Shown: positions 1 through 64,000 of the stretch, piece by piece | How the letters are laid out: each line of letters opens with the position of its first letter | Position numbering within the stretch: the first letter of the stretch is position 1 | Origin: Truepera sp. | Lineage (GTDB): Bacteria; Deinococcota; Deinococci; Deinococcales; Trueperaceae | NCBI GenBank assembly: GCA_965218435.1 | Contig: CBDCKW010000009.1 | Coordinates: 1,120,001 to 1,184,000 of the forward strand | DNA: 64,000 bases | Direction: 5' to 3' | Made by a program: the position numbers and the translations under genes | Notes under the pieces: model-generated | Databases searched by the model: none | Told to the model about the DNA's origin: nothing | The model's input: the letters and a program-made list of their open reading frames with translations, nothing else

Positions 1-722
1 CGGAGCTGCCGCCGGTTCGGTTTGGCGTCGCAATTGCCGACCTCGGCGCGGCGATGTGGAGTTTGGTGGGGATTTTAAGTGCGCTACACGTACGTGAACA
101 GACCGGGCGCGGTCAATACATTGATACCTCGCTTTTTGAAGGGCAGGTGTCATGGCTGACTTACGTCGCCGGAAACTACTTTGCAACTGGAAAAAACCCT
201 GAGCGGCACGGTTCGGCGCACCCCAACATCGTGCCGTACCAGGCGTTTGAAACGAGCGACGGCGCTGTCATGATCGCGATCGGTAACGACGGTTTGTGGA
301 GGAAGTTTGTCGTGGCGATAGGGCGGCCTGCGCTGGGAGACGATCCCAAATACATGACGAACGAGACCAGGGCCGCGCACCGGGATGAACTGATCGGCGT
401 CTTGAGTGACGTATTTAAGGCGCAGACGACAGACGAATGGATCGAGCAACTCGGTCAGCGTGGTGTGCCGGTGTCGCCGATTCAAAGTGTTGCCGATGTG
501 GTTGAAGACCCGCACGCCGCCGCCAGGGACATGTTTGTCAAATTGCAGCACCCGACGGTCGGGGAAATGACCGTCACGGGGATTCCCGTCAAACTTTCCG
601 AAACGCCCGGTGAGGTTAAAACGCCGCCCCCAACCTTGGGTCAGCACAGCGAAGAGGTGCTGCTCGAGCTGGGCTACTCACCTGAAGACATCGCGGCGTT
701 GCAAAAAAATAGCGTTGTTTAG
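1..722 (+). CDS. CaiB/BaiF family (class III) CoA-transferase, 5'-truncated by the window edge
   Basis: Frame is open from base 3 (ELPPVRFGVAIADLGAAM). Typical motifs TGRGQYIDTSL, HPNIVPYQAFETSDG, PPPTLGQH. Confidence 0.9.
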   Translation, partial: ELPPVRFGVAIADLGAAMWSLVGILSALHVREQTGRGQYIDTSLFEGQVSWLTYVAGNYFATGKNPERHGSAHPNIVPYQAFETSDGAVMIAIGNDGLWRKFVVAIGRPALGDDPKYMTNETRAAHRDELIGVLSDVFKAQTTDEWIEQLGQRGVPVSPIQSVADVVEDPHAAARDMFVKLQHPTVGEMTVTGIPVKLSETPGEVKTPPPTLGQHSEEVLLELGYSPEDIAALQKNSVV

Positions 723-842
723 ATGGAGTGCTATTCTGCTGGCTCACGGCTGGGTTGCTTGCTTGAAGGGACAATTTGACAGGTGGCCTCGAGCAGGATG
801 ATAACGGGACTCGAGCTGGCTTATTTGGCACTGTGTTCCCCC

Positions 843-1988
843 TCAATACTTGCTCGGTGGGTCGTAGCGGCGGTGAATCGTCTGCGCCAGCGTGTAATAA
901 TCCAAGAGCTTTTCGGTAGACGCCCGCCAGCTCCAGCGTTCCATCTCGAGTCGTGAGCGTTCCCCGAACCTCTGCCTCAGCTCTGCGTCAAAGAGCAGCG
1001 TGCCGAGTTTGTCAGTCAAATCGCCGAGGTCACCTGGGGTAAACATCAGGCCGTTCTCTCCCTCGCTGATCACATCGGGGATGCCGCCAGCTCTAGCCCC
1101 AACTACTGGAACACCCGAGGCCATCGCCTCCATCGCCACAAATCCGAGCGTTTCGGTGTCCGAGGGAAAGGCAAACACGTCGGCTGACGCGTAGGCTTGC
1201 GCCAACTCGTCGCCGCTCATATAGCCGGTAAACACGGTCGGCGTGTCGGCGAACTGTTCGCGTAACGCTTTTTCAGCTGGGCCGGAACCCACAAACGCCA
1301 GCCGTACCTCGGAAAGCTGGGTGACGGGCGCGTAAAGCCAGTCGAGCCGTTTTTCAAATGAAAGCCGCCCGACGTAGACCATCAGCGGTTTGTCCGGCTC
1401 ACCGTCTGAGAGGCGCAGCCGCATGTCGCCGGAGTTGTTGCCGGGGGTGTAGCGCACCGTATCTACCGCTTTCGGCCAGAGCCGCACCCGGTTGATACCG
1501 AGCCCCCGCGCCGAATTGACCATCGGTTGACTCGTGCAGAGGTTGACGTGCGCTTGGTTGTGAACATCCCGAATCCAGGTGTGCGACAACGGTTTGAGAA
1601 AGCCTAAGTTGAGGTGCTCGACGTAGTGCGGCAGGTCGGTGTGAAAGCTCGCTAAAAGGGGCAGGTTGCGCTGTTTGGCAATGGCGGTGCCCCACATGCC
1701 TAAAACGACCGGGTTGATGACATGCACGATATCGGGTTTGAAGCGGTCCAACTCGCGGCCCAAACGGGGGCGGGGGAGACCTAAAAAAAGTTCGGGATAC
1801 CACGGGTAAAATGACACCGCCGGAACCTTGATGATGGGAAACCCTTGAAAGCTCTCGGGCGGGTTTTGCGGCGCGAAGATGATGGCTTCGTGACCGAGGC
1901 TTTGGAGCTGTTCCAAAGTCCGCAGCATCCGGGTAACGATGCCGTCAATTTTGGGTAGAAAGGTTTCGGTAAAGTAGGCGATACGCAC
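843..1988 (-). CDS. sqdX: GT4 glycosyltransferase, probable sulfoquinovosyltransferase (SqdX/SQD2-like)
   Basis: MRIAYFTETFLPKIDGIVTR N-terminus; YVGRLSFEK and ETLGFVAMEAMASG motifs; lies downstream of sqdB on the same strand. Confidence 0.75.
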   Translation of the reverse strand: MRIAYFTETFLPKIDGIVTRMLRTLEQLQSLGHEAIIFAPQNPPESFQGFPIIKVPAVSFYPWYPELFLGLPRPRLGRELDRFKPDIVHVINPVVLGMWGTAIAKQRNLPLLASFHTDLPHYVEHLNLGFLKPLSHTWIRDVHNQAHVNLCTSQPMVNSARGLGINRVRLWPKAVDTVRYTPGNNSGDMRLRLSDGEPDKPLMVYVGRLSFEKRLDWLYAPVTQLSEVRLAFVGSGPAEKALREQFADTPTVFTGYMSGDELAQAYASADVFAFPSDTETLGFVAMEAMASGVPVVGARAGGIPDVISEGENGLMFTPGDLGDLTDKLGTLLFDAELRQRFGERSRLEMERWSWRASTEKLLDYYTLAQTIHRRYDPPSKY

Positions 1989-2262
1989 GGCTATGATAGA
2001 CCTATGATGCGTTGTCGGTACCTGGGCCGGTCAAAACGGAACGAGTCGGACCTAGTTGTTCTAAAAGCGTTATGAATAGATGCGCCATAGTCAGTATGGG
2101 CTACCCAGCTTTCAAACTTACCCGCAAGGTGCGGCACGACGTTTCTTGTCCGCTCCTTGATAGGCCGTGAACCGTCCGGTAAATTGGCTACCCTCACACG
2201 CACAAGGGGTGAATGGTAGCCAGCTTGAACGTTCAAAAGGTTGTACACAACTCGGCCCCTAC

Positions 2263-3501
2263 TCAGGTGGTGGGCTCGAGCTTCTCCGTACCCACGCTGC
2301 TTTTAGGAACGCCAGCTTTGGGTATCCCCGCATGTTGTGCTTTGGTCCATAGAGACATTGCCGGAATCTTGCTCAGGTCGGCCCTGTTTGCGTACTTTTT
2401 GGCAATTTCAGTAACTTCTAACAGCAACCCTTCGGAAAGCGTCGTCGGGTTTAGGCCCATATCTAAAAACAGGTCGTTTTTGACGTGCAGTTCGTTTTCC
2501 GGCGACTCTTTGCGGGGGTTCGGGACGTAGGCTACGTCGTCACCCGTAAGCTTGGCGACGAGCTGCGCTAAGTCGCGCACCTTGTGTGTTTCGGTCATCT
2601 GGTTCAAGATACGGACGCGCTCACCCACAGCCGGGGGATGGGTCAGCGCCAGCTCGACGCAGCGCACGGTGTCCTGAATATGGATAAACGCCCGCGTCTG
2701 CCCGCCGGTGCCGTGAACGGTCAGCGGATACCCGACCGCTGCTTGCATCAAAAAGCGGTTCAGAACGGTACCGTAATCGCCGTCATAATCGAAGCGGTTG
2801 ATGAGGCGTTCGTCGCGGGCCGTCTCTTTCGTATTCGTCCCCCAGACGATGCCCTGGTGCAGGTCGGTCACGCGAACACCGTCATTTTTGTTGTAAAACG
2901 CGAACAACAGCTGGTCTTGTGTTTTAGTCATGTGATAGATGCTGCCGGGGTTCGTCGGGTAGAGAATCTGCTGCTGCACCCGTTCGCCGGTCTCGGTAAC
3001 GACCTCGACGTCTAAGTAGCCCTCCGGAATCTTCATCCCGGCGGTGCCGTAACCGTACACGCCCATCGTGCCTAAGTGCGCGATATGAACGTCTTGACCC
3101 GACTCGACCACGGCGCAAAGCACATTATTGGTCGCGCTGACGTTGTTGTCTACGGTGTAGCGTTTATGCCGTGGCGACTTCATCGAATAGGGGGCAGCCC
3201 GTTGTTCGGCAAAGTGAACGATGGCGTCGGGGCGTTCAGCCTCTAAAATCCCCAAAAACCGCTCGTATTCGGTCGCCAGGTTGAGGTTGTAAAACCCCAG
3301 CTCGTTGCCTGAAACCTCTTTCCAGGCTGCAATACGCTGGTCTATCGGCGCAACCGGGGTCAGCGAAGTTGCGCCGAGTTCGTTGTCAATGTTGCGCCGT
3401 GACAAGTTATCTATGATGACCACTTCATGACCGAGGTTCGACAGGTGCAGCGAGGTCGGCCAGCCGCAAAAGCCGTCGCCGCCCAAAATAAAAACTTTCA
3501 T
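2263..3501 (-). CDS. sqdB: UDP-sulfoquinovose synthase
   Basis: GGDGFCGWPTSLHLS, HFAEQRAAPYSMK, HLGTMGVYG, PGSIYHMTK, TDLHQGIVWG and RFDYDGDYGTVLNRF are SqdB/SQD1 signatures. Confidence 0.93.
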   Translation of the reverse strand: MKVFILGGDGFCGWPTSLHLSNLGHEVVIIDNLSRRNIDNELGATSLTPVAPIDQRIAAWKEVSGNELGFYNLNLATEYERFLGILEAERPDAIVHFAEQRAAPYSMKSPRHKRYTVDNNVSATNNVLCAVVESGQDVHIAHLGTMGVYGYGTAGMKIPEGYLDVEVVTETGERVQQQILYPTNPGSIYHMTKTQDQLLFAFYNKNDGVRVTDLHQGIVWGTNTKETARDERLINRFDYDGDYGTVLNRFLMQAAVGYPLTVHGTGGQTRAFIHIQDTVRCVELALTHPPAVGERVRILNQMTETHKVRDLAQLVAKLTGDDVAYVPNPRKESPENELHVKNDLFLDMGLNPTTLSEGLLLEVTEIAKKYANRADLSKIPAMSLWTKAQHAGIPKAGVPKSSVGTEKLEPTT

Positions 3502-3814
3502 CGTGCCTCCGTAGGCGTGGGGCAGGCTTGCCCCAACAAAGTACCTGTCAGTCTAGCACTTCGTATGTACGGTTAAACAGGCTGAGTAAACGACAAGAAT
3601 AGAGCTACAAAAAGCAGACCTTAGGTCTGCTCGAGCCTCTTTGCCAGCTTGCCCGGCTTTTGCTCTCTAACTGCTGCGCCGAATACACGAAAGACACTTT
3701 TCACAGGCTGCAGATGCTTGAATGCCGTTTTTTGTAGCTCGGCTGTGATCTTATTGGCTGTAGTCTCAGATATTACCAACGCCCTTAGCTGATAAGGTCA
3801 ACAAAACCCAAAGC

Positions 3815-5026
3815 TCAAAGGATACTGCCGCCTCCGCGCACCTTACGGAGCCACTCGCGCCACTGCCGTTTGACGAATCTGCGGCGGTAACTTTGCGCCC
3901 CCGCCTTCCACTCGCCGGATTTAACGGTTGCCCAGATCACCACAGCTGCGATAAAAAACGGGTGCAGCACGGCCCAGGTCACGGTGTTAAGGCCGCCCAA
4001 GTCGCGCCGCCCCATCAATCTTTCGCCTAAGTGCATCCCGTAAACCTCAACGATGAGTTTCGCACCCCAGAGCCCGAACACCCACGGCATCAGCGCAGGG
4101 TCAAAAAAGGCCAGCACCACGCCGAGGCTCAGCACGACGCTCTGCGCCCCTAAAACTGAAATGGCGGCAAAAAAGGCCGGATGGTAGTGCATGATGTGAA
4201 AGTAGCGGCTGACCCAGCGGCGGCGCTGATTTAAGAGCGCGTAAACGCCCGGCATCGGTTGGGTATAGACGCGGATATCGGGGGTATTGGCAAAGACGAT
4301 GCGGCCTTGTTGCAAGCGGCCCATTCGCTGCGTCAAGAGGTCTTCGTCACCCGAAGGGGCACGGCCCGACGCGCCGAAACCGCCGATCTGCAAAAACGCG
4401 CTGCGGCGGTAACCCTGATTGTTGGCGGAGGAGGCGAACTTCCAACCGAAGTGCGTCAAGGCCATCGAGGTCATCATTAAGGATAACCAATCGGTTGATT
4501 CAAACCGCTGCACGGCGCTCGAGCCGTCATTCGGGCGCGTGCTTTCGACGTAGCCCACGACCATCGCCACGTCCGGCGCGAAGTGTGAGACCATCCCCGA
4601 CACCCACGTCTCCGGGTACTGACAGTCGGCGTCCGAGGTTAAGATAAGCTCGCCGGTTGACGCCTGAATCCCGGTATTGACCGCGTTGACCTTGGGTGAT
4701 AAGCGGCGGCTCGGTAGGTGAACGTTGACGAGGCGGAAGCGCGGGTCTTGCGCCACAAAGCGTTCGATGATGGCTTCGGTCGCGTCGGTTGAGCGGTCGT
4801 TGACGATCACGAACTCGAGCCCCCCCGTATAAACCTGCCGGGAAAGCGAGGCGAGCGTCGCAGCTAATTTGTCCTCTTCGTTATGCGCGGGGATAATCAC
4901 GCTGACGCTCGGCGTTGCAGCGTTTTGGGGGCGGTCGTTATGTCTGAGCAGGCCGACAATGACCATCAGCATCAGACCGATATAGGGTAACACGAGCGCG
5001 TAGAGTAAAATTAAAAGTAACGTCAT
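3815..5026 (-). CDS. GT2 family membrane glycosyltransferase
   Basis: SVIIPAHNEE, NDRSTD, DADC, GDED and QRRRW motifs, with N- and C-terminal TM helices. Confidence 0.9.
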   Translation of the reverse strand: MTLLLILLYALVLPYIGLMLMVIVGLLRHNDRPQNAATPSVSVIIPAHNEEDKLAATLASLSRQVYTGGLEFVIVNDRSTDATEAIIERFVAQDPRFRLVNVHLPSRRLSPKVNAVNTGIQASTGELILTSDADCQYPETWVSGMVSHFAPDVAMVVGYVESTRPNDGSSAVQRFESTDWLSLMMTSMALTHFGWKFASSANNQGYRRSAFLQIGGFGASGRAPSGDEDLLTQRMGRLQQGRIVFANTPDIRVYTQPMPGVYALLNQRRRWVSRYFHIMHYHPAFFAAISVLGAQSVVLSLGVVLAFFDPALMPWVFGLWGAKLIVEVYGMHLGERLMGRRDLGGLNTVTWAVLHPFFIAAVVIWATVKSGEWKAGAQSYRRRFVKRQWREWLRKVRGGGSIL

Positions 5027-5446
5027 AAGTTAAAACCTGAGGCTTGCACGCCCGAGTCTAGCATAGGGGCCTCTCAGCCGAAAGCGCCCTAAGCACCCAC
5101 TTATTCAAGAGTACCGCAAGGGTCGTGTCGCTACAGAGGTTACGCGGGTTGGGCCGAGCGGGTTAATCAGCTGAGCGTCGGACAACTCGCCGAGCCGACC
5201 TGCTGAGTTCGTTTGAGCCGTAGCCATACAAATTTTCAGCTACGCAGCTCACCTCATATTTTTATTTTCAAAAGGATTTGCTCCAAGCCGTGACCCAAAA
5301 CCTAATAGACCATAATAATAAAGATCCATAGACTATAAGAAATAGACCATAAGAATATGTGCGCTGTCGGCGCTCAGACAATACAAGTTGACAACACAAG
5401 CTCTACGCGACTGCTCGGTGGCGCAGCTGAGCGGTACGCTGTAGAC

Positions 5447-7711
5447 GTGAAGCTGCCGGACGCACTCGCTAAGCACCGCTCGTATCACGGCTGGTTGGGA
5501 GCACAAGCGGGGTATCGCGGGCAGATTGAGTTTTTTAGCTACGTGCCGGGGCGAGTCGGCGGTGAGCGAGCTTTACCCCCGGCGCGTTACCGCGCCCTGT
5601 TGGCGCAGCTCGAGATTACACCCTACAAACATCAGGCTGAGGCGCTCGCCTACAGCGCAGCGGGGAAAAATGTTGTCGTAGCAACGCCGACGGCTTCGGG
5701 CAAATCGCTTAGTTATCAGGTACCGACGCTCGAGGTCCTGGCACGCGGTGCTCACGCGCTCTACTTGTTTCCGACCAAGGCGCTCGCGTTCGACCAATTA
5801 GAAAAGCTCACCCAGCTTGCTGAGAAGTTAAAGCTCGGCGGTTTTGTCTCAACGTTCGACGGCGATACACCCACGCAGCACCGCCAAGCGGTTCGTGAGC
5901 ACGCACGCTGCATCCTGACGAACCCGGATATGCTCCACTACGGTATTTTGCCGCAACACGCGCGGTGGGCACGGTTTTTGGGCTGCTTAGAACTCATCGT
6001 CTTAGATGAACTGCACGCCTACCGCGGCGTCATGGGGACGCACGTCGCCAATATCGTACAGCGCCTGTTACGGTTGGCGCGCTCCTACGGGGCGACGCCG
6101 CAAGTCGTTGCGGCGAGCGCAACCATCGGGAATCCGGCCGAGCACGCGCACAACCTCACCGGGCTTAAGTTTGAAGCGGTAACCCAAGACGAAAGCCCCA
6201 GGGCTGAACGTGAACTGCTCTTCTGGCGGCCCCCGGATTTGCCCGGTCAAGCAGGGGTGGACGGGCGTCGCCGCAGCACCCACGCCGAAGCTGCCGACCT
6301 CGCAGCGCTGTTTGTCAAAACCGGGCTTAAGAGTATCTTTTTTTGTAACTCGCGCAAGTCTGCCGAGCTGCTCCGCCGTTACGCCGCCGAAGTGTTGACC
6401 GACGCTGAAAAGGCGCGGTTGTCGAGCTACCGGGCAGGGTACAGCAGCGAGGACCGCCGCATGATCGAGTCGGCGTTTAAGGCGGGACGGCTTTCGGTCT
6501 TGACGGCGACGAGTGCGCTCGAGCTGGGCGTGGACATCGGCGGGGTAGACGCGGTGGTGTTGGTCGGCTATCCAGGGTCGTTGACGGCGTTTTGGCAACG
6601 CGCCGGGCGTGCGGGCAGAGGCAGTACACGGGCTTTAACGCTCCTCATTCCGGGCGGTGATCCGCTTGACGAGTACTACCTCACGCATCCCGAAGCCGTC
6701 ACCGAGGGCCGCGTCGAGCACGCGGTAGCCGACGCCTTGAATACCGAACTGCACCCAAAACACCTGGCGTGTGCGGCGGTTGAGAGGCCGCTCGAGCCTT
6801 ATGAGCCGCTCGTCGGCGGGGTAGATTTGGCGTCATTAGCCGGGTTTAAGGAATACCGGGGCCGCTGGGTTTACCGGGGCCGTTATCCGCACCGCACGCT
6901 CAGTGTGCGCGGGACGGGTGTGGGGCGTATCAAGCTGCGGGACAATCTAGGTCGCAATTTAGGCGAGGCCGATTGGGTCAGCGCCCTCCGCGAGCTGCAT
7001 CCGGGCGCAGTCTACTTGCATCAGGGCGAGAACTACCTCGTGCGTAACCTGGACTTGGAAAAAGGCGAAGCCTACTTACTGCCGCACTTAGAAGACACCT
7101 ATACGCAGGCGCGTTCTGAAACCGAAGTGACCGTGTTGGCTGAGTCCGAACGTTTTGGCCGCGTCCATACGGGCCGCGTCGAGGTCACGACGAGTTTTAC
7201 CTCGTATGTCCGTAAACGCCTCTACCGCGAGACTATCTTAGACGAGCGCCCTTTAGACCTACCCGACGCGAGTTTTCTCACGCAGGCGCTCTGGTTTGAG
7301 GTGACTGATGTTGCCGGGGCGGTGCCGCCAAGTTTGTTGCCGAGCGCCATACACGCGCTCGAGCACACCCTCATCGGCCTTTTACCCGCCTTTGTCCTGT
7401 GCGAACGTGCCGATGTCGGCGGCGTCTCGTATCCGGCGTACCCGGCTAGCGGCGCACCGACTATCTTTATTTACGACGGCTACCCCGGCGGGGTAGGCTA
7501 CGCTAGAGAAGGCGCGACAAGGTTTACCGAGTGGCTGAGGGCGGCGGGTGAGCTGCTCACCCGGTGCCCGTGTCAAAACGGGTGCCCGCGCTGCGTGTTA
7601 TCACCTAAGTGTGGCAACGGTAACCAGCTGCTGGATAAAACCGCAGCAAAAGTGCTGAGCCTTAGTTTGCTTGCTACACTTTCTGCTACGCCGTTAATCC
7701 TAAAGGCGTAG
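5447..7711 (+). CDS. DEAD/DEAH-box helicase with C-terminal Zn-binding DUF1998 domain (Hrq1/MrfA-like)
   Basis: PTASGKS, LTNPDMLH, DELH, TSALELGVDIG, QRAGRAGR, CPCQNGCPRC. GTG at 5447 chosen because TACGCT lies 6 nt upstream (ORF is open from 5357). Confidence 0.9.
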   Translation: MKLPDALAKHRSYHGWLGAQAGYRGQIEFFSYVPGRVGGERALPPARYRALLAQLEITPYKHQAEALAYSAAGKNVVVATPTASGKSLSYQVPTLEVLARGAHALYLFPTKALAFDQLEKLTQLAEKLKLGGFVSTFDGDTPTQHRQAVREHARCILTNPDMLHYGILPQHARWARFLGCLELIVLDELHAYRGVMGTHVANIVQRLLRLARSYGATPQVVAASATIGNPAEHAHNLTGLKFEAVTQDESPRAERELLFWRPPDLPGQAGVDGRRRSTHAEAADLAALFVKTGLKSIFFCNSRKSAELLRRYAAEVLTDAEKARLSSYRAGYSSEDRRMIESAFKAGRLSVLTATSALELGVDIGGVDAVVLVGYPGSLTAFWQRAGRAGRGSTRALTLLIPGGDPLDEYYLTHPEAVTEGRVEHAVADALNTELHPKHLACAAVERPLEPYEPLVGGVDLASLAGFKEYRGRWVYRGRYPHRTLSVRGTGVGRIKLRDNLGRNLGEADWVSALRELHPGAVYLHQGENYLVRNLDLEKGEAYLLPHLEDTYTQARSETEVTVLAESERFGRVHTGRVEVTTSFTSYVRKRLYRETILDERPLDLPDASFLTQALWFEVTDVAGAVPPSLLPSAIHALEHTLIGLLPAFVLCERADVGGVSYPAYPASGAPTIFIYDGYPGGVGYAREGATRFTEWLRAAGELLTRCPCQNGCPRCVLSPKCGNGNQLLDKTAAKVLSLSLLATLSATPLILKA

Positions 7712-8197
7712 TTCTTTTTCTAAAACAACAACCAGTTTTTCTCAGATCAGGCCATGTACCTAAAAGCACCGTCCAGAACAGCTTTCACGCCTTATAGGTA
7801 TTGTCCTTTCGAACATTGACGCAAACTCCATGAGCGACTAATGTGAAGCATGTCACTCGGACTTCTCTCACTTCTAACCGCTCTGGTGATATTTAACGTT
7901 TTTTTGTTTTGTGGAGGAGGCAGTTTTCCGCTGTTGGCTGAGCTAGATGAGCAAGACTAAGGCAGCGACGGAGAACTGCCAGCTATGCGCTGGGTAGCCT
8001 GTATTCGCTCGGCTAAACGCTCCAAAAATGTTGAATCCCAACCGCTCTCAACAGTGTTTTAGTTGTCTCACTTGGTCGCAACACTGCCTACTTACTTTAT
8101 TTGCAACGTCAACCGTCACCTTTAATCTCAACTCTGACATTTGTGAAGTCGGCCAGCTTGGTGTCTACCGCCGTTGGCCCCCTCGAGAGGATACAGC

Positions 8198-9433: not shown

Positions 9434-9594
9434 ACAACTCCGTGCCGGATGTGGCGGCTGGTTTAGCTGGTATTCCGGGTGCTGCAGAGTTGGCTATCCT
9501 AGTATTACAGCCGCAGTTAGCAGGAGTAAGTTGAGCTGTAACTTTCTCCCACGCCACACCACCTAAGCTTAAAACCTGGGCAGTTGAATCTCAG

Positions 9595-9700
9595 GGGGAT
9601 ACATTTCCCGAGGCTTGCCTCGAAACTAGGAACGTATCAAGGTAAGCGTAGCTTACGAGATTTTCCTAAATACCCCGTCCGCTTGCGGCGGGGATTTTTA
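9595..9700. mobile_element. Small non-coding multi-hairpin element (REP-like or IS200/IS605-end-like, non-autonomous)
   Basis: Hairpins CGAGGC-TT-GCCTCG (9609-9622), GTAAGC-GTA-GCTTAC (9642-9656) and CCCCGtCCGC-TT-GCGGCGGGG (9673-9693). No ORF. Confidence 0.4.
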
Positions 9701-9841
9701 TTAAAGAAACGATTTCCGCAGCGTCCGTAAGGCGTATATCACGAAGAACGAGCGTGGCTCGGCTTACGCCTTTTTAGCTGGTATTTTTGCGTCCCGAGAA
9801 CTTCTTACTTGCTGCTACACACAGATGATAGCCTCAATACT

Positions 9842-53646: not shown

Positions 53647-53703
53647 AGGGCTGCTGAAAGAAACGTTTATAGTCTCGAGTATGACTTCTGGGTTCTACAC
53701 GCC

Positions 53704-55086: not shown

Positions 55087-55087
55087 A

Positions 55088-55846: not shown

Positions 55847-55882
55847 CTTCTACATGAAGTCCTACCGAACCCCGACCTATTC

Positions 55883-55960
55883 GTGGACGCTCGGCCGCGC
55901 CCTGAGCAAACCTTTGACGCCCTACGCCTCAACGTGCTCAGCGACAGGCTTTTTGCGATT
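55883..55960 (+). pseudogene. 5' relic of a TMEM175/DUF1211 gene
   Basis: EQTFDALRLNVLSDRLFAI versus EQTFDALRLNALSDGLFAI at 59079-59135. Confidence 0.85.
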
Positions 55961-56124
55961 GCTCAGGTGAAAAAACGTGTGTGAGCCTCTCCCAAATCGC
56001 AGCGCGGCTGACAAGCCCGGTTCAAACGGTTTCAAGTTATTCTGTGGAGGTTTACGGTGTAAAAGCCGTGTGCCTCCGGGCTCAACCACCGGTGATTACA
56101 ACAGCTACCCGTTAGGGAGAACGC

Positions 56125-57255
56125 ATGAAGCTCAAAAAGATTACGGCGACCGAGGTCGTGGTGCCTGCCAAAGCCGGGACGATCAATAGCGAGGGGCTCG
56201 AGCGTCCCCTGCACAAACTAAGCAGCAAAGGCCGCGCGGCCTGGACGCAGCAGTTCGATACGCTCCCGAAGCTGCTGTTACAGCTTCACTGGGAGGGCGG
56301 CCTGGTGGGGCTGGGCGAATGCTACCGCGACCACGATTGGGAGACGGTTGCAACGATTTCGGCTTCACTGCTCGGCCTCGAGCTAGCGTCTTTAACCCTG
56401 CAAGAGCTGCCGATCAGCCCGTGCCGCGAATACGACGGGTTCGAGTGCGCCGTCTGGGACAGCACGGCCAAAGCGCATAACTTGCCGCTAGTGACGCTCT
56501 TAGGGGGCGCGGTGCGTGAGCGGGTGCTCGTCGGGGCGTGGACGGGTCACCGCGAGGTCGCTGAGATTCCCGACCTGGCGCGGCGGTTTGCGGCGCAGGA
56601 TTACCGGCACTGGAAGTTCAAGTGCGACCTGGAGGACGATGTAGCGGCCTGGTGCGCGGCCATTAAAGAGGCCGCCCCCGGGATGAAAGTCGTCTTGGAC
56701 CCCAACGAACGCTGGGAGTTTGCGTTCGAGGCGCGTGCCCGCCTAGATGAACTTGCCAAGCTTGGGAACGTGTTGTGTCTCGAGGACCCCTTGCCGCGTT
56801 GGAACTTAGACGCGTACCGTGAACTTCGCGCGCACAGCAGCGTGGCGATTGCGCTGCACGTCTCGCTGCCTTATCTTGCCCACGGACAGAGGGTTTCAGA
56901 CGCCATCAACGCCCTGACCCAGCACGCTGTAGACGGCTTTAACTTTAACGGCGGGCTCGCCAAGTTTGGGCAGCTGAGCAGTATCGCGGGGGCCGCGCAC
57001 TTACCCTTTTGGCATGGTAGTGAGCTAGATTTAGGCGTGCTCGAGGCCATGTACCTGCATCAGTGCGCCGCCGCCAAACTGTGTATCTGGCCGAGTGACA
57101 TCTTCGGACGGCTGGTACGGACGCACGACCTGCTCAAAACCCCGCTCCGGCTCGAGCCTCCCTACGCTTACCTGCCCACCGGTCCCGGCCTCGGCATTGA
57201 ACTGGACCTCGCTGCGCTCGAGACCTACACCACCCGTCAAGAGGTCTACGCGTGA
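56125..57255 (+). CDS. Enolase superfamily enzyme (mandelate racemase/muconate cycloisomerase-like)
   Basis: KFK, DPN, EDP and GPGLGIELD motifs. Confidence 0.88.
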   Translation: MKLKKITATEVVVPAKAGTINSEGLERPLHKLSSKGRAAWTQQFDTLPKLLLQLHWEGGLVGLGECYRDHDWETVATISASLLGLELASLTLQELPISPCREYDGFECAVWDSTAKAHNLPLVTLLGGAVRERVLVGAWTGHREVAEIPDLARRFAAQDYRHWKFKCDLEDDVAAWCAAIKEAAPGMKVVLDPNERWEFAFEARARLDELAKLGNVLCLEDPLPRWNLDAYRELRAHSSVAIALHVSLPYLAHGQRVSDAINALTQHAVDGFNFNGGLAKFGQLSSIAGAAHLPFWHGSELDLGVLEAMYLHQCAAAKLCIWPSDIFGRLVRTHDLLKTPLRLEPPYAYLPTGPGLGIELDLAALETYTTRQEVYA

Positions 57256-58127
57256 CGGCTAATCCGTTTCTAAACGACCCCGACCGCTACGCCATCTGGG
57301 AGATGCTTGTCACGCGCGACATCGCCGCGTTTGTCGCGCAAGATTGGGAACAAGTCGCAGGCGACTTTATCGAACCGGGTTTTTGGGGTCTCGACGCCCG
57401 GTTTCGTGCGAATCCCGATTCGTGGCAGCTCAGCTTTCCTACGTTGGCGAGCTACCGCGAGGCGTGGCTGGAGCAAGCTCATGCGAATGCTGGACGTATA
57501 ACTCCGGTCAAACTGAGTGAGGCGCTCATGGACGCGACGACGCTTAGAGACATCGAGCTGAAGGGGGAGAGCGCCGTCGCGCACAAAAAATTTGACGGTG
57601 AGCTTCGCTTTGATGACGGTTCGGTAGAGACGCTCCGTTGGCAGACGCTCTACCACTGCCGCAAGGTGGCGGGTGAGTGGAAAATCGCTGGATTCGTAGG
57701 GTACTTACTCAATCCACTGGGTGAAGCCGCAGCGGGTGCAACCGCTTTGGTCAAAGAAGTTCCGGTGGGCTCGAGCCAGCACGCGACCGCCGGGCCGTAC
57801 TCGCCGGTGCTGCGCGTCCGGGCCACCGAACTCGTGGTGATTTCGGGGCAGGTCGGGGTCGCACCTGACGGCAGCGTCCGCAGTGACGACTTTACGGCGC
57901 AGACTGAGGATACTCTAGATAACTGTTTTGCGAAGCTCTCGAGCGCCGGATTAGGAGCTGCCGACGTCTTTAAGGTCAACGTCTACCTGACTGATTTGGC
58001 CAACTGGGAGGCGTTTAACGTGGTGTACCGAGAACGCTTTCCCGACCCTAAACCGGTCCGCACTGCTGTCGGCACCCAGCTCTTACCCGGTATCTTGGTC
58101 GAAGTCGAACTGTGGGCCGCGCGGTGA
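57252..58127 (+). CDS. NTF2-like domain fused to a RidA/YjgF domain
   Basis: N-terminal IWEMLVTRDI...AHKKFDG...WKIAGF; C-terminal GPYS, ISGQ, KVNVYL, FNVVY, PVRT, VEVE. Confidence 0.82.
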   Translation: MTANPFLNDPDRYAIWEMLVTRDIAAFVAQDWEQVAGDFIEPGFWGLDARFRANPDSWQLSFPTLASYREAWLEQAHANAGRITPVKLSEALMDATTLRDIELKGESAVAHKKFDGELRFDDGSVETLRWQTLYHCRKVAGEWKIAGFVGYLLNPLGEAAAGATALVKEVPVGSSQHATAGPYSPVLRVRATELVVISGQVGVAPDGSVRSDDFTAQTEDTLDNCFAKLSSAGLGAADVFKVNVYLTDLANWEAFNVVYRERFPDPKPVRTAVGTQLLPGILVEVELWAAR

Positions 58128-58140
58128 TCTGGAGCAGATT

Positions 58141-58929
58141 ATGATCTGGGACAAGCTGACGAGCCCGCAGCTCGCGGCGCTCCCCAAAACTGTACCGGTC
58201 GTCTTGCCGCTCGCCGCGACTGAACAGCACGGCCCGCACCTGCCGCTCGCTACCGACCGCCTGATCGCCGAGCACTTTATGACGCGCTTAGACGAGGAAC
58301 TTAGGGAAAACGTTCTTATTTTACCGACGGTCGCGGTGGGTTGCTCGGAGCATCACCTGGACTTTTGCGGGTCGCTGACGCTGACGCACGAACACTTTGC
58401 GGCGTATGTAACCGATGTGCTCACCTCAGTTCAGAGCCACGGGTTTACCAACCTAGTGATGTTTAACGCCCACGGGGGCAATTTAGCCGTCGGGCAGACG
58501 ATTTTAGAAATCTTCGGACGACGACGCCCCGAGTGCCAGGTTGTCATGATGACCTGGTGGCAGCTCGCTACGGCTGAGCTGCTTGAACTCAGCGAAACGG
58601 GTCCCGGCGGCGTCGGGCACGCCGGTGAGTTTGAAACATCGCTGCTGCTCTACTTCGCTGAGGCTTTAGTTCAAAAAGATAAGTTGCCCGATAACGGCTT
58701 AGCACCGACCTATACGTGGGCCGAGAGTGATATGCTCCGGCGCGGCAACGCGAGCCTCTACCGCCCCTTCAACACGATGACGCGTAACGGTGTCGTCGGG
58801 GTACCTAAAGCGGCGGGTGCCGACAAAGGGGCGCGGATCAGCGATATTGTCGTGGCGCACGCGGCGCGTATTCTGAGGTCTTTACAGGACTCACCGGGCG
58901 TTGTCCACACAGAGGGTCACGACTCATAG
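58141..58929 (+). CDS. Creatininase family amidohydrolase
   Basis: EQHGPHLPLATD, SEHH, NAHGGN and HAGEFETS motifs. Confidence 0.93.
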   Translation: MIWDKLTSPQLAALPKTVPVVLPLAATEQHGPHLPLATDRLIAEHFMTRLDEELRENVLILPTVAVGCSEHHLDFCGSLTLTHEHFAAYVTDVLTSVQSHGFTNLVMFNAHGGNLAVGQTILEIFGRRRPECQVVMMTWWQLATAELLELSETGPGGVGHAGEFETSLLLYFAEALVQKDKLPDNGLAPTYTWAESDMLRRGNASLYRPFNTMTRNGVVGVPKAAGADKGARISDIVVAHAARILRSLQDSPGVVHTEGHDS

Positions 58930-58999
58930 CTGTAAAAACTATAGCCGTAAAAAAATTGGAACTGTACAAACTGAGACGCGTTTTCGGGTCTGCTGCTAA

Positions 59000-59019
59000 G
59001 GGGCGGCTCGAGCCGCCCC
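59000..59019. repeat. Perfect 20-bp palindrome centred on CTCGAG
   Basis: GGGGCGGCTCGAGCCGCCCC. Confidence 0.9.
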
Positions 59020-59051
59020 AACTGACCTGGACGCTTGGCTATACTTAAACG

Positions 59052-59768
59052 ATGCTGACTCCCGGCCCCCCTCGAGCTGAACAAACCTTTGACGCTCTCC
59101 GCTTAAACGCCCTCAGCGACGGGCTTTTTGCCATCGTGCTGACACTCCTCGTACTCGACATCAAGTTGCCGGAGAATGTGAGCGCGTCGGCCTCGACGCG
59201 TGAGCTGTTAAGGCTGCTCGTTCCTGCGCTTTCAGGCTATCTCATCACCTTCGTCCTCGCGGGCGTGTACTGGATTCTCCATAACCGCCTTGTCGAATCG
59301 CTGCGTGTTATTACCCCCCAACTGCTGTGGCTCAACCTGATGCTGCTGCTTTCGGTGGGCCTGCTACCTTTTAGTGCAGCGGCACTATTCGGAGACAATA
59401 ACCTCGGCTATCCCTTTTACAGCGTCAATATGATTTTGATCGGTGTGACCCAGGCGGCTCTGTGGGGCTACGCGGCAGCGGCGGGGTTGTTAAAAGAAGA
59501 GCAGCGAGACCCCAAGCACGTTCGGACGGTGCTGGGGCGTACCCTAATCACACCTTTGGTCTTTGCCTTCGTTTTGGTACTGCGGCCCGTCGCGCCGACC
59601 GTCGCACCGTTCCTACCCTTCGCACTTTTCCCTGGGCAGCTTTTGTTTCGTGAACCGCGCGGCGCTCGGGACGCTCCAGCGCAGCCGAGGTGGGCCACAT
59701 TTTGGCGCTTCGTGGCTTTTGCACCTGTAATCGCGTTTTTTCTCGCGCTGCTCTGGCTTAGAGGCTAG
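59052..59768 (+). CDS. TMEM175/DUF1211 family K+ channel-like membrane protein
   Basis: RLNALSDGLFAIVLTLLVLDI, YWILH and LLPF motifs. Confidence 0.9.
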   Translation: MLTPGPPRAEQTFDALRLNALSDGLFAIVLTLLVLDIKLPENVSASASTRELLRLLVPALSGYLITFVLAGVYWILHNRLVESLRVITPQLLWLNLMLLLSVGLLPFSAAALFGDNNLGYPFYSVNMILIGVTQAALWGYAAAAGLLKEEQRDPKHVRTVLGRTLITPLVFAFVLVLRPVAPTVAPFLPFALFPGQLLFREPRGARDAPAQPRWATFWRFVAFAPVIAFFLALLWLRG

Positions 59769-59789
59769 TGCCTTCCTCGCCGCTTGTCT

Positions 59790-60935
59790 CTAGGCGAAAT
59801 TCTCTTGTCCTGCCAACTTAACAGGTTCACTGAGCGCCACACTTGGTGAGACGGACTCGAGTCCAAACGCGTCGCCGACGGCCCGGTAGGTCAGCTGACC
59901 CTGATAGGTGTTGAGCCCCGAGAGTAGGGCCGGGTCGTTTTGTAACGCCTCGGTGCCGTATTCGGCCAGGGCCAATGCATATTTAAGCGTCTGGTTTGAC
60001 AGCGCCGTCGTGCTCGTATTCGGCACCGCCCCCGGCATATTGGCGACGCCGTAATGCACCACGCCGTCAACCACAAACGTGGGGTCGTCGTGGGTGGTTG
60101 GGTGAATCGTTTCGATACAGCCGCCTTGGTCTACCGCCACGTCAACAATCACACTGCCTGGTTTCATGGTGGCGATCATCTCGCGCGTCACCAGATGCGG
60201 AGCCCTGGCCCCCGGAATCAGCACGGCTCCGACGAGCAGGTCGGCGCGCGCGACCATCTCGGCAATGTTGGCCGGAGTACTCGCCAGCGTCTGTAAGCTG
60301 CTGCCGAAGACGTCATCGAGGTACTGTAACCGCGCGTAGTTGACGTCTAAAATCGTCACCCGTGCGCCGAGTCCGACGGCGATTTTTGCCGCGTTCGTGC
60401 CAACTATGCCGCCGCCTAAAATGACAACCTCACCGGCCTGCACGCCTGGGACGCCGCCGAGTAGTAATCCGCGTCCGCCCAAAAACTTGCCCAGATAGTG
60501 TGCCCCGACCTGCGTCGCCATCCGTCCGGCAACCTCACTCATCGGGGTCAAAAGGGGGAGCGACCCGTTGGCGAGCTGCACCGTTTCATAGGCGACGGCG
60601 GTGGTTCCAGCATTTAACAGTGCCTCGGTCAGCGGGCGGTCGGCAGCCAGGTGCAGATAGGTAAAGAGCAGCAGGTCGTCACGCAAAAACTCGTATTCTT
60701 GCGCCATCGGTTCTTTGACCTTTAAGACCATCGCTTGTGCCCACGCTTCGGCGGCGCTTCCGACCAGCGTTGCACCCTGCGCCTCGTATTCGGCGTCAGA
60801 AAAGCCGCTGCCGACCCCGGCCCCGGTTTGCACTACGACCTGATGCCCGTGAGCGACGAGCCCGTGAACCGTGCCGGGGGTCGCGGCAACGCGGTACTCG
60901 TGAGTTTTGACCTCTTTAGGAACGCCGATATTCAT
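59790..60935 (-). CDS. ald: Alanine dehydrogenase
   Basis: IGVPKE, KVKEP, FTYLHLAA, PMSEVAGR, DVAVDQGGC and VANMPGAVP motifs. Confidence 0.97.
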   Translation of the reverse strand: MNIGVPKEVKTHEYRVAATPGTVHGLVAHGHQVVVQTGAGVGSGFSDAEYEAQGATLVGSAAEAWAQAMVLKVKEPMAQEYEFLRDDLLLFTYLHLAADRPLTEALLNAGTTAVAYETVQLANGSLPLLTPMSEVAGRMATQVGAHYLGKFLGGRGLLLGGVPGVQAGEVVILGGGIVGTNAAKIAVGLGARVTILDVNYARLQYLDDVFGSSLQTLASTPANIAEMVARADLLVGAVLIPGARAPHLVTREMIATMKPGSVIVDVAVDQGGCIETIHPTTHDDPTFVVDGVVHYGVANMPGAVPNTSTTALSNQTLKYALALAEYGTEALQNDPALLSGLNTYQGQLTYRAVGDAFGLESVSPSVALSEPVKLAGQENFA

Positions 60936-61113
60936 ACCCTTCACCTCGCTATACATAGCCTAAACCCAGTTTATAGCAGGTTTCAGCTGCTTGGCTATGT
61001 TCTCTATACTCGGTACTATTTATGGGTCAGGTGGGTTCTAAAAGCCGGTTGAGAGTTGGAGGTGTGCCGCTAAACCTGTGCGACAAGAGACGTTTTAGTA
61101 TGAGTATGGCCGC

Positions 61114-62052
61114 TTAAGCCCAGACGCGCAAAAACTTCATCCGGCCCGCCGTGACCTCAGCCACGGCGACGAGGGTGTGCGAATGGTCAACGAGACCGAG
61201 ACGCCCATCTGCCAACGCTTCTGAAGGCAGCCGCTGACCCTGTTTAACGCGAGCAACCTGTGCAGCGTCTAGCTCGAGCAGCGGATACGGCAGTGCGTCG
61301 GCGAGGGCAAAACCGGGCGTATTAGAGAGATTGTCTAATGGTACAGCTTGGTCTAAAGCAAAAGCTCCGGCTTGAGTTCGGACGAGACCCGAAAGGTGTG
61401 CCGGAATGCCTAAAGCTGCGCCTAAGTCCCTGGCAAACGCCCGCAGGTAGGTCCCGGCTTGAACGCGGACATCAAATAGGGCTGTAGGAAAATCACCGAG
61501 CGTCGGAGGTAACGGTGTAGGTTTTTGGGGTACGTCTAAATCATTTCTGGTGGGCGCAAACCCTAATAATTTGATGTCTTTGTAACCGGCAGGGCGGGAC
61601 TCGAGCTTTAATACTTCACCCTTACGCGCCGCCTCATAACCTTTGACGCCACCTTTTTTCACGGCCGAATACTGCGGCGGCAGCTGTTCGGAAAGCTCTA
61701 AAAATGGGGGCAGCGCAGCGTGAATGTCCTCAGCACTCAGCCCGGACGCGTCCGCCGTTTCGTCAATCGGCCCCTCAGCGTCGAGTGTCGGCGTTCCGGC
61801 TCCGAACGAGACCCACGCGAGGTAACGTTTTTCCGAAGCCGTCAAAAAAGGGGAGAGCTTGGTCGCCTCGTCGCTCAAGATAACCAGCACCCCGGTTGCT
61901 AAAGGGTCGAGCGTCCCGGCGTGACCGACCGACCTAGTTTTGAGAAGTTTACGCGCTCTTGCCACCACGTCATGTGAAGTCAGGCCGAGCGGTTTGTCAA
62001 CGATGTAGACCGGCATTGCCTCTTCATACCATGCTGTCTCAGTTGCCGCCAT
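61114..62052 (-). CDS. truB: tRNA pseudouridine(55) synthase
   Basis: DKPLGLTSHDVV, GHAGTLDPLATGVL, PPQYSA and GTYLR motifs; the start may be 62016. Confidence 0.96.
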   Translation of the reverse strand: MAATETAWYEEAMPVYIVDKPLGLTSHDVVARARKLLKTRSVGHAGTLDPLATGVLVILSDEATKLSPFLTASEKRYLAWVSFGAGTPTLDAEGPIDETADASGLSAEDIHAALPPFLELSEQLPPQYSAVKKGGVKGYEAARKGEVLKLESRPAGYKDIKLLGFAPTRNDLDVPQKPTPLPPTLGDFPTALFDVRVQAGTYLRAFARDLGAALGIPAHLSGLVRTQAGAFALDQAVPLDNLSNTPGFALADALPYPLLELDAAQVARVKQGQRLPSEALADGRLGLVDHSHTLVAVAEVTAGRMKFLRVWA

Positions 62053-62075
62053 CTCTCATTACGTTATTTCAACTA

Positions 62076-62104
62076 TTGACAAAATGTTGTAGTTGTACAA
62101 CAAT
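62076..62104 (+). promoter_or_regulatory. Promoter overlapped by a palindromic operator (probable Xre autoregulation)
   Basis: TTGACA at 62076; TGTTGTA-N4-TACAACA at 62085-62102. Confidence 0.6.
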
Positions 62105-62127
62105 ACGTTTTAGCTTTACGAACTGAG

Positions 62128-62409
62128 GTGACGATGCCTGAAAACAAACTAACGATCTATAACCGGCTTTCCGTTTTACGGGCCGAACGCGGGCTGTCGC
62201 GGCAAGAGCTGGCGGACGCGGTGGGGGTGAATTATCAAACTATCGGTTACTTGGAGCGCGGCGACTACAACCCGAGTTTAGAGTTGGCTTTCAAACTGAG
62301 CGACTACTTCAGCTTGCCTATCGAGGTTATCTTTTCAACGAAGCCCCTCAAACCCTTGAGCGAAGCTCTGTATGAACTTCAAAATCACAGAGAGGAAAAA
62401 GTTGCATGA
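62128..62409 (+). CDS. Xre/Cro family HTH regulator
   Basis: LRAERGLSRQELADAVGVNYQTIGYLERGDYNPSLELA. Confidence 0.93.
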   Translation: MTMPENKLTIYNRLSVLRAERGLSRQELADAVGVNYQTIGYLERGDYNPSLELAFKLSDYFSLPIEVIFSTKPLKPLSEALYELQNHREEKVA

Positions 62410-62495
62410 AAAAGCTTGGGTTTTTTGCTGGCACACTCGAGCCCAACCCACCTACCGAAGAAACCTCTTTTCGTACCTCGAGCGGAGCGCACTGA
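62406..62495 (+). pseudogene. 29-aa mini-ORF, probable internally deleted paralogue of the downstream membrane proteins
   Basis: MKKLGFFAGT-LEPNPPTEETSFRTSSGAH*; ATGA and TGATG overlaps at both ends; the LEP tail matches the paralogue C-termini. Confidence 0.65.
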
Positions 62496-62962
62496 TGCGC
62501 AAACCTCTAAGGAGGAGCGTTCGGCGGCTCTTAAGCGTCCTTGCGTTCGCGGCGCTGCTCCTCACCTTTTTTGCGGGCGCACTAGGCAGGGAGTTCGCCT
62601 GGTTAGCCCTTCTGCCGCCCATTCCTCTTATTTTTGTCATCATATGGCTGGATAGAGCGACGGCGAATATAGCGACCAAAAAAGTGAGTAAGCTCGATGA
62701 GCGGCAGAGACGTGTACATGACCAAGCCCACCGCTTGACGTACTGGGTTCTCTACCTTTATGCGTTCCTCGTGTTCTCTGTTTACACTTTTGACTTTGGC
62801 GACCTCAATATCCCTATAGCTTACGGGGTAGGGGAAACGACCTTCATCTTCAAACTACTCAGCATGAACATATATTTGTTCATTGTCTTGCCAACTCTGT
62901 TCGTGGCGTGGCTCGAGCCTAACCTTGTGCAAGAAGATAACTTCGCTAAGGAGACTGCATGA
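62495..62962 (+). CDS. Membrane protein (LDERQR motif), paralogue A
   Basis: About 4 TM helices; LDERQR..HDQAH and AWLEPN motifs; GGAG RBS before ATG 62495. Confidence 0.75.
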   Translation: MRKPLRRSVRRLLSVLAFAALLLTFFAGALGREFAWLALLPPIPLIFVIIWLDRATANIATKKVSKLDERQRRVHDQAHRLTYWVLYLYAFLVFSVYTFDFGDLNIPIAYGVGETTFIFKLLSMNIYLFIVLPTLFVAWLEPNLVQEDNFAKETA

Positions 62963-63465
62963 AACGCCGTATAGTCTTATATCAGAGTAGCCGCCGCTTA
63001 CTCGTAATTGGCTTCATAAGCACTTTTGTAGCGAGTTTGATGCTGAGACTCTTAGCCGATAATCTTGACCAATTAGCTTTAGGTCTTCAAGTTTTGGGAG
63101 TATTCTTTGCTGCTGGTTTACTCAGATGGGGAAAGCCTCAAATCAAAAGCAAATTTATGGATGAGCGCCAGCGCGATATTCGTAACCGCTCGTACTTTAG
63201 GACTTACTTACTGCTCTCGGTTATATCCGTCAGTATTCCCATTGTCATGACTTTGCTGTTTGTCGTTGCTGAGCAGACTACAAGGGCGCTGATCGTTACG
63301 CTCCTCACCTCCTTACAGCGACCTGTGGATTTTGTAACGGTGTTTAGTTCGTTAGCACTTTTTGTGGTTTTTCTTCCTTGGGCAATGCTGGCGTGGCTCG
63401 AGCCCGACCCACCGCGAGACGAATCCGTTACTCTCAAGTCTGACTCGCGCATAACGAACTCTTAA
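62959..63465 (+). CDS. Membrane protein (MDERQR motif), paralogue B
   Basis: About 4 TM helices; MDERQR..RNRSY and AWLEPD motifs; ATGA overlap. Confidence 0.78.
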   Translation: MKRRIVLYQSSRRLLVIGFISTFVASLMLRLLADNLDQLALGLQVLGVFFAAGLLRWGKPQIKSKFMDERQRDIRNRSYFRTYLLLSVISVSIPIVMTLLFVVAEQTTRALIVTLLTSLQRPVDFVTVFSSLALFVVFLPWAMLAWLEPDPPRDESVTLKSDSRITNS

Positions 63466-63470
63466 AGCCT

Positions 63471-63908
63471 ATGTCACCACGCGTTCGGCCTCTGGCTATC
63501 TGCCTCATCTACCGTGAGGGTACGCAAGGCCGAGACCTCTTGGTGATGGAGGGTTTTGACGAAGCCAAAAAGTCTTGGTTTTATAGACCGCTCGGCGGCG
63601 GTATCGAGTTTGGCGAGCGGGGTCATGAAACGGTCAAGCGGGAGTTGCGTGAGGAAACCCGACAAGACCTGACCGATATCCGGTTTTTAGGTGTGCTCGA
63701 GAACCTGTTTACCTACGCGGGCACCCCGGCTCACGAACTCATGCTGGTGTATGAAGGGCGGTTTGCCGACCCAACCGTCTACGAACAAGACAGCCTGGAA
63801 GCCGTTGAGGATGACGGCTCGAGCTTTACCGCCCGCTGGTTGGCTGTAGAAGATTTTCAAAACGGCACCTTGAGACTCGTCCCTGAGGGTTTATCGGCCT
63901 ATCTCTAG
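63471..63908 (+). CDS. NUDIX hydrolase
   Basis: GGGIEFGE...TVKRELREET Nudix box. Confidence 0.92.
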   Translation: MSPRVRPLAICLIYREGTQGRDLLVMEGFDEAKKSWFYRPLGGGIEFGERGHETVKRELREETRQDLTDIRFLGVLENLFTYAGTPAHELMLVYEGRFADPTVYEQDSLEAVEDDGSSFTARWLAVEDFQNGTLRLVPEGLSAYL

Positions 63909-64000
63909 GTCTGCCGCGCCGTATACTTTAGCAGTGCCCTATAAACCCGTCTGTCTCGCCTTACTGCTACTAGTTCAGCTCGCTTTTGCCACCCAAGAGG

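Follow-up and report, generated by a model that had tools for sequence, protein, structure and literature searches.

Highly iterated palindromes (HIPs) of cyanobacteria are the closest described counterparts of the CTCGAG word examined here in a window of 64,000 nucleotides of Truepera sp. (GC content 56.7%). In the available sections of three reports, HIP1 (GCGATCGC) and the alternative HIPs are described as dispersed palindromes that occur at 500-2500+ copies per Mb, exceed codon and composition nulls, are conserved, and are tied to orphan methyltransferases (PMC4390886; PMC5861425; PMC13756078). The smtB deletion is described there as a sporadic deletion between two HIP1 copies (PMC13756078), HIP1 was reported to boost transformation in a methylation-dependent manner (10.1101/2024.09.10.611283), and the ratchet model of Elhai is described for the alternative HIPs in section 18 of PMC4390886. 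These sections of PMC4390886 contain no mention of CTCGAG, Thermus, or Deinococcus, and those of PMC13756078 none of CTCGAG. The CTCGAG excess in the honey bee, as described in part of PMC3903499, is unrelated. No publication on a CTCGAG excess in Deinococcota was found in a search whose coverage left out most of the subscription literature and some word-count supplements.

CTCGAG is the HIP-like word of a phylum other than the cyanobacteria and is not HIP1 itself. It lies far above its nulls across the genome and is better conserved than control words; the word is not GCGATCGC and the host is a Truepera-like member of the Deinococcota. The original prediction, made from the letters of the window, had described CTCGAG as a HIP1-like iterated palindrome, and this description is borne out by an excess that is independent of codon bias, by site-by-site conservation, and by sharing across the clade. 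CTCGAG resembles HIP1 in abundance, in conservation of sites, and in occasional site-to-site joints. Unlike HIP1, it is a hexamer without a GATC or GC core, occurs in another phylum, and reaches 6.6 copies/kb in one family; a rough test displayed no clear period. The candidate enzymes for CTCGAG belong to three unrelated N6-methyladenine (m6A) methyltransferase families, whereas those of HIP1 and the alternative HIPs are DmtA/DmtC.

The window contains 148 dispersed copies of CTCGAG (663..63823, no strand; first copy at 663, last at 63818), against 20.8 ± 4.6 expected and a maximum of 31 in 100 dinucleotide shuffles. These values agree with the roughly 145-150 copies, and the approximately 20 expected, that had been estimated by hand. 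The whole genome (G000; 4.81 Mb, 9 contigs) contains 9,883 copies, or one per 486 bp. CTCGAG is the top hexamer of this genome, with an observed/expected ratio (O/E) of 5.2 under an order-2 Markov model. A maximal-order Markov model gave an O/E of 1.24, which was discarded: CTCGAG inflates its constituent 5-mers too, so the value carries no information. The copies are evenly distributed along the chromosome, with varied flanking sequences and a Poisson-like, unclustered spacing. A rough fast Fourier transform of the spacing, which differs from the method of PMC5861425, gave a peak of 7.6 compared with 6.2 expected from noise. The palindromes GGCGCC, GGGCCC, TTTAAA, and AGGCCT are strongly avoided in the same genome, and GATC is also avoided (O/E 0.61). 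The spacers of clustered regularly interspaced short palindromic repeat (CRISPR) arrays contain 2 CTCGAG against 4.6 expected, in just 71 spacers. A 20-bp perfect hairpin (59000..59019, no strand) is centered on the CTCGAG at 59007, and an Rfam scan of the window gave no match. Contigs C6 and C8 (21 kb each) carry 5.2 and 3.2 CTCGAG/kb and are denser than the chromosome; each resembles two joined copies of a ~10-13 kb plasmid.

The window copies are divided 96/12/18 among the codon frames of genes from a crude gene caller. The remaining 22 are uncalled, and 5 of these fall in one long open reading frame (ORF) missed by the caller. All 11 positions previously listed as intergenic fall outside called genes, so the reported presence of sites in all three codon phases and between genes is confirmed. 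In the genome, 6392/560/1351 copies are observed in the three frames, compared with about 1980/80/260 in five synonymous-codon shuffles of 4,160 crudely called genes, and intergenic DNA contains 1,388 copies where 200 are expected. The excess is 3.2-fold in the Leu-Glu frame, 7-fold and 5-fold in the other frames, and 7-fold in intergenic DNA. The enrichment does not disappear under codon-preserving shuffles, the first outcome that had been named as refuting the prediction, and the assertion that codon-pair bias is insufficient to explain the copies stands. The Leu-Glu frame holds 77% of the coding sites, and CTC-GAG encodes 54% of all Leu-Glu pairs. One-off synonymous Leu-Glu pairs are low (CTCGAA 320, CTGGAG 322, and CTTGAG 218, versus 1215 for TTAGAG). 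At the protein level, Leu-Glu is enriched 1.26-fold and Glu-Leu 1.06-fold.

Conservation of individual sites was measured in alignments to two congeners (79% identity) that covered 514 kb (800 kb fetched). Among 2,801 hexamers, none is conserved as well as CTCGAG, at 59% compared with a median of 26%. At conserved Leu-Glu positions the site is shared in 469/577 cases (81%), versus 113/454 (25%) where the Truepera sp. genome is without the site. The odds ratio for CTCGAG at Leu-Glu is 13.1; when the most frequent codon pair of each of 233 dipeptides is treated alike, the median is 3.9 and the 90th percentile 9.4. Individual copies of CTCGAG are therefore lost at a slower rate than codon usage accounts for.

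The density of CTCGAG was surveyed in 161 genomes of the order. An excess was found in most of the Deinococcota lineages sampled, with two large genera excepted. The highest densities, 4.3-6.6 CTCGAG/kb, are in family f5 (16 genomes). Values of 0.3-2.6 were obtained for family f1 (44 genomes, Truepera sp. included), 0.7-2.9 for f3 (17 genomes), 2.7-3.4 for g39 and g40 (5 genomes), 1.4-3.1 for genus g20 (13 genomes), 0.6-1.1 for genus g17 (23 genomes), and 0.01-0.27 for f2 (42 genomes). In our reading, g20 is probably Meiothermus-like, g17 Thermus-like, and f2 Deinococcus-like. The composition-corrected O/E, calculated for the fetched genome samples only, ranges from 19 to 25 for three genomes of f5 and from 6.8 to 9.6 for G005, G044, and G076. 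GAGCTC is nearly missing in f5 (0-25 copies in 13 of the 16 genomes, e.g., G022, G030, G058, and G067), where CTCGAG occurs up to once per 150 bp. A metagenome scan returned 7 loci, none of them from the same species. ComEC was found in 5/5 genomes tested, including those of lineages without a CTCGAG excess.

Methylation of this word has been published for the phylum. Table S3 of PMC4752239 lists CTCG(m6A)G methylation in three Deinococcota by the orphan methyltransferases M.Mru1279II, M.Mch9957IV, and M.Mhy14884I, with m6A detected at 94-99.5% and no cognate nuclease listed. The available passages of PMC4752239 report no genome-wide excess for the hosts of these enzymes, and the CTCGAG clustering that they mention concerns a Nocardia replication origin. 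In the same source, the methylome of Allomeiothermus silvanus has five motifs, and CTCGAG is not among them. This organism displays a CTCGAG excess despite the published methylome; the first 50 kb of one A. silvanus plasmid contain 63 copies versus 17 expected.

The three published enzymes share their site and phylum with the system described here, and the Truepera sp. genome has neither a XhoI- nor a TaqI-type enzyme. The search that had been proposed for a XhoI/PaeR7I-type or TCGA methyltransferase was negative in this genome for the XhoI nuclease and for XhoI/PaeR7I-type and TaqI-type methyltransferases. The target of XhoI/PaeR7I, CTCGAG, is the same as the word here. Membership in such a restriction-modification system, with nuclease and cognate methyltransferase in one genome, does not apply to Truepera sp. 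CTCGAG is enriched in this genome, unlike the restriction targets GGCGCC, GGGCCC, and TTTAAA, which are avoided. In genome G001, a XhoI-type methyltransferase, a family assigned by the adjoining XhoI nuclease, is followed by a nuclease gene that is split over two frames (L056:2330-4787); the Truepera sp. genome has 143 bp at this place.

The candidate in Truepera sp. is an orphan gamma-class M.Eco57IB-like gene at C9:3672240-3673934 (564 aa) with N6_Mtase and M_Eco57I_C domains. Targets of the Eco57I family presumably read CTNNAG. Homologs of this methyltransferase occur in 22/43 of the other f1 genomes, 10/42 in f4, 0/17 in f3, and 0/16 in f5. Among the 13 genomes of g20, 10 have this type, the other 3 have the XhoI type, and none has both; the XhoI type is present in 2/2 genomes of g40. 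The families are complementary in g20 and in part of f1. Together with the TaqI type in g17, this distribution suggests functional replacement. Inspection of 80 loci for a nuclease next to the homologs revealed no common neighbor, and the methyltransferase had no PDB match. One plasmid homolog adjoins a second, larger N-6 methylase gene in an Eco57I-like layout. All 11 of the M.TaqI-like loci of g17 examined (L037-L047, of L037-L055) have the same upstream neighbor gene. A Fisher test in f1 of the methyltransferase against the CTCGAG/GAGCTC ratio (15/15 high, 12/29 low; p 8e-5) was set aside because the ratio follows GC content, related genomes do not count as independent, and the densities are alike. 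A PF22837 profile search was not counted, since it gave no match in any control genome.

Three rearrangements had been predicted to break exactly at CTCGAG in the window. The first, at 44132/45044, is upheld. An ABC-2 permease gene has its 3' end (copy A; 44969..45049, minus strand) duplicated as an 81-bp copy that is 95% identical (copy B; 44057..44137, minus strand), and both copies begin exactly at CTCGAG (45044-45049 and 44132-44137, respectively). G004 and G005 share the site of copy A. Between the copies are the HicA toxin gene of a toxin-antitoxin module (44676..44867, minus strand; PF07927, E 3e-16) and a helix-turn-helix (HTH) partner gene (44153..44644, minus strand), which is probably a HicB-like antitoxin judging by its position. 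Strain contigs were obtained from two sequencing runs of one sample, which possibly include the source of the window itself; joints tagged 'between: not known', the majority of those listed, were excluded. These contigs contain an allele without the 924 bp of the HicAB insert and a second allele in which the end of the partner gene is fused to the neighboring gene and the duplicated copy is missing. The insert may have arrived as a circle integrated at CTCGAG, or by joining at one end via long homology and at the other via the hexamer.

The break predicted at 62436 is likewise supported. An HTH_3 regulator (62128..62409, plus strand) heads an array of small membrane-protein genes. It is followed by a 29-aa mini-ORF (62406..62495, plus strand), in which ten N-terminal codons and the tail of an array gene are fused in frame at the CTCGAG at 62436, and by two array genes (62495..63465, plus strand), each ending in W-L-E-P with CTCGAG at 62912 and 63397. 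The first array gene is full-length in G005, whose identity to the window (87%) begins exactly at 62436 and whose upstream region is longer by about 1.5 kb with three extra genes. Parallels occur in relatives. A 22-aa fusion in G002 is consistent with deletion from an N-terminal to a C-terminal Leu-Glu. Locus L221 is without the first array gene present in L223, with the join near CTCGAG, and the array join in G004 is apparently some bases upstream of CTCGAG. A divergence of the strain contigs is located at 63389-63410, and the depth of the last array gene is halved. Most array genes end in W-L-E-P; in some paralogs W-T-E-P or W-R-E-P takes the place of this motif and CTCGAG is absent. The longer shared protein motif contributes to the joints at this array. 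Arrays of this kind (window 62128-63465; L117:17341-20000) combine D-E-R-Q and W-L-E-P motifs, hold 2-6 genes by genome, and are mostly without Pfam matches. The first gene is a mini-ORF remnant in Truepera sp., G002, G004, and L221.

The third prediction, a rearrangement at 26352, was sustained in part. The upstream and 5' regions of two tandem paralogs, 24788-25525 (region 25440..25579, minus strand) and ORF 25552-26412 (region 26222..26358, minus strand), are homologous, with their shared upstream stretch terminating at GCTCGAGC in each copy (25573/26352). In a third paralog (C9:1257417), divergence starts just ahead of CTCGAG. Of the three junctions, the first two have support from relatives. 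The paralog family (window 24788-26412; C9:1257417) is secreted-looking without a Pfam match, and the 5' end of its third member adjoins a miniature inverted-repeat transposable element (MITE).

The frequency of such joints was determined by comparison with relatives and within the genome, using small junction samples and nearest aligned genome pairs of 92-93% identity. Among 58 indels of at least 100 bp between the Truepera sp. genome and G004 or G005, CTCGAG is in both flanks of 3, against 0.26 expected; direct repeats of at least 6 bp in general were found in 19 versus 17 expected and are not enriched. Of the three, one is clean, another has an empty junction from which CTCGAG is absent, and the last is an ambiguous replacement; the event at 62436 is outside this set. 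G004 misses 1,567 bp between the CTCGAG at C9:1998782 and that at 2000350, with one site retained and a HEPN-nucleotidyltransferase pair gone. Near direct repeats in the genome (copies within 25 kb; 187/528 retained after removal of arrays and multi-copy repeats) have 7/374 ends at CTCGAG. The window, with 2 of these 7, is unusually rich. Repeats with a non-coding copy have 6/178 ends at CTCGAG versus about 1 expected from density.

Alignment ends at 79% identity coincide with CTCGAG in 7/718 rearranged cases (3.2 by simulation) and in 12/588 non-rearranged cases (2.6), and the latter value indicates that conservation alone pulls alignment ends to CTCGAG. At 92-93% identity the values are 2/142 and 0/20. 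A passive null was built by drawing pairs of matching words at random, no more than 10 kb apart, from the first 1.5 Mb of C9. Such pairs contain CTCGAG in 1.7% (at least 6 bp), 5.2% (at least 8 bp), or 9.0% (at least 10 bp) of cases, and in 3.5-7% for 7-9 bp. The share of junctions at CTCGAG is about 1-5%, compared with this passive expectation of 1.7-9%. Joints at CTCGAG exceed site density and are not clearly beyond what an abundant, well-kept microhomology would yield; the proposed enrichment at breakpoints holds in the first sense and not clearly in the second. Because only a few percent of indels are joined at CTCGAG, no dedicated gene-swapping system is demonstrated. Self-BLAST ends were dropped as an enrichment test. 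CRISPR arrays swamped the first run, and after filtering 40/2,041 unique ends had CTCGAG no more than 5 columns away, with 10/40 due to one MITE or insertion sequence family and many others to paralogs that had diverged and end at Leu-Glu.

Several repeats elsewhere in the genome also contain the word. A MITE of ~240 bp with CTCGAG in both terminal inverted repeats is located at C9:467667, 1257805, 1403596, and 2623614 and at C7:9965; related ends are at C5:232542 and 503197. Two of the six copies of a 582-bp repeat (C9:1256132 and 2702738) share 19 additional flanking bases that start exactly at CTCGAG. The ends of this repeat are presumably IS200/605-like. Locus L173 (C9:257.5-261.3 kb) carries four toxin-antitoxin-like pairs (DUF4258, BrnA, DUF433/DUF5615, and Fic with an AbrB-type partner), flanked by two paralogous lipoprotein-like genes and spaced by short repeats with CTCGAG inside them or at their end. 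Separately, the window encodes a 1126-aa HD-CE domain protein (11506-14886). The GlnRS of this genome has a C-terminal YqeY domain, a trait linked to Deinococcota, and for one of its genes the closest homolog with a name comes from an uncultured Truepera (67%); both assign the genome to the Truepera-like Deinococcota.

Integron-like cassette arrays are a further system for comparison. The HTH-headed array resembles them in its variable gene number and in the CTCGAG-bearing end motif that its genes share. Unlike integron cassettes, it has no integrase beside it, its motif is protein-coding, and its events are deletions or fusions. No recombinase is among the annotated genes at the three junctions of the window; no genome-wide recombinase search was made. 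With only 1-5% of junctions at the site, CTCGAG does not behave as the site of a cassette or site-specific recombination system, where most junctions would fall at the site and a recombinase would be linked to it. Several loci do have breakpoints at CTCGAG, but such use is minor and guidance by an enzyme is not demonstrated. The proposal that CTCGAG guides the insertion and deletion of small modules is, as stated, not supported, since its share of junctions is about that of passive microhomology.

The favored reading, held to be about as probable as all else combined, is that CTCGAG is a HIP of Deinococcota that serves as a repair or recombination mark and also as a passive microhomology joint. 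The word is maintained at individual sites on the chromosome and the small contigs, as the counts and alignments show. Most likely, DNA repair or recombination in the host would read it and favor its retention, as proposed for HIP1. Methylation to m6A would be carried out in many lineages by interchangeable, mostly stand-alone methyltransferases, as published for three relatives, and in Truepera sp. probably by the orphan M.Eco57IB-like gene on C9. Deletions, in-frame fusions, and module insertions occasionally join two copies, as seen at several loci. Because it is so common and well kept, CTCGAG is the most available short homology, which leads to such joints; a few percent of junctions would be explained and a dedicated recombinase would be unnecessary.

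Several observations weigh against this reading. The family of the Truepera sp. methyltransferase, which is only a candidate enzyme for CTCGAG, is widespread in other phyla, and within f1 the median density is nearly the same with a candidate enzyme (1.48/kb) as with none (1.32/kb). In the searches run, f5, the densest family, and g39 had no shared methyltransferase. A TaqI-like methyltransferase is present in 23/23 genomes of g17, where there is little CTCGAG excess. No CTCGAG-reading protein was found. Conservation of the sites, as judged from sequence, fits selection and biased repair alike and does not separate the two. The 58 indels, enriched in CTCGAG pairs without a general enrichment of direct repeats, lean toward a more active role.

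A weaker but plausible alternative is that CTCGAG is a functionless by-product. A methylation- or repair-directed ratchet, as set out by Elhai (PMC4390886, section 18), would make and protect the sites, and the joints would be passive microhomology. The Poisson-like spacing, without clustering or a period clearly over noise, and the depletion of one-off synonymous Leu-Glu pairs are consistent with such a ratchet. However, CTCGAG persists in four families with differing or no candidate methyltransferases, and Leu-Glu exceeds Glu-Leu in enrichment at the protein level. A version driven by Vsr and 5-methylcytosine was rejected: Vsr is rare (none in Truepera sp., 0/12 in f5, and 5/61 overall), and no C5 methyltransferase is conserved, the two of Truepera sp. 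having no close relative in five kin.

The model of the original prediction, in which CTCGAG is an active methylation and recombination tag, is considered unlikely. A site-directed nick or strand exchange would make it a preferred joint for modules, toxin-antitoxin modules especially. The pair excess among indels without a general excess of direct repeats and the excess at non-coding near-duplication ends argue for this model. So do the toxin-antitoxin modules inside several events (HicAB, HEPN-nucleotidyltransferase, a PIN gene, and the cluster at C9:257-261 kb), the repeated array-site fusions in Truepera sp., G002, and probably L221, and the increase in transformation reported for methylated HIP1 (10.1101/2024.09.10.611283). 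However, alignment ends of the closest pairs are seldom at CTCGAG, and at 79% identity the non-rearranged ends exceed expectation more than the rearranged ones. Other microhomologies erode more quickly than CTCGAG, two of the three double-flank indels are imperfect or ambiguous, and CTCGAG was tied to neither a nuclease nor a recombinase, with no genome-wide recombinase search made. An origin of the counts in codon-pair or dipeptide (Leu-Glu) bias or in repeat or mobile-element spread is very improbable: the predominance of the Leu-Glu frame and the MITE with CTCGAG in both terminal repeats are set against an excess that is greater in the other frames and in intergenic DNA, varied flanks, and five MITE copies compared with 9,883 sites, and the codon explanation is refuted by the synonymous-codon shuffles and the intergenic excess.

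The favored HIP reading could be extended to a phylum-wide, independently evolved HIP system in most Deinococcota. A protein would act at CTCGAG, six shared bases would suffice for joining, small modules (toxin-antitoxin pairs and array genes) would come and go, and the mark would be passed between three methyltransferase families or dropped without loss of the word. This extension is regarded as doubtful. For 30 years HIP1 has had no settled function, and work on it has been confined to cyanobacteria. With a separate word in another phylum, the hypotheses of uptake, recombination, and repair can be tested independently. The cultured, non-pathogenic hosts among the Deinococcota offer natural contrasts of gain and loss at about 6/kb, 2-3/kb, about 1/kb, and under 0.3/kb, and the window supplies concrete CTCGAG-to-CTCGAG joints together with a null to beat.

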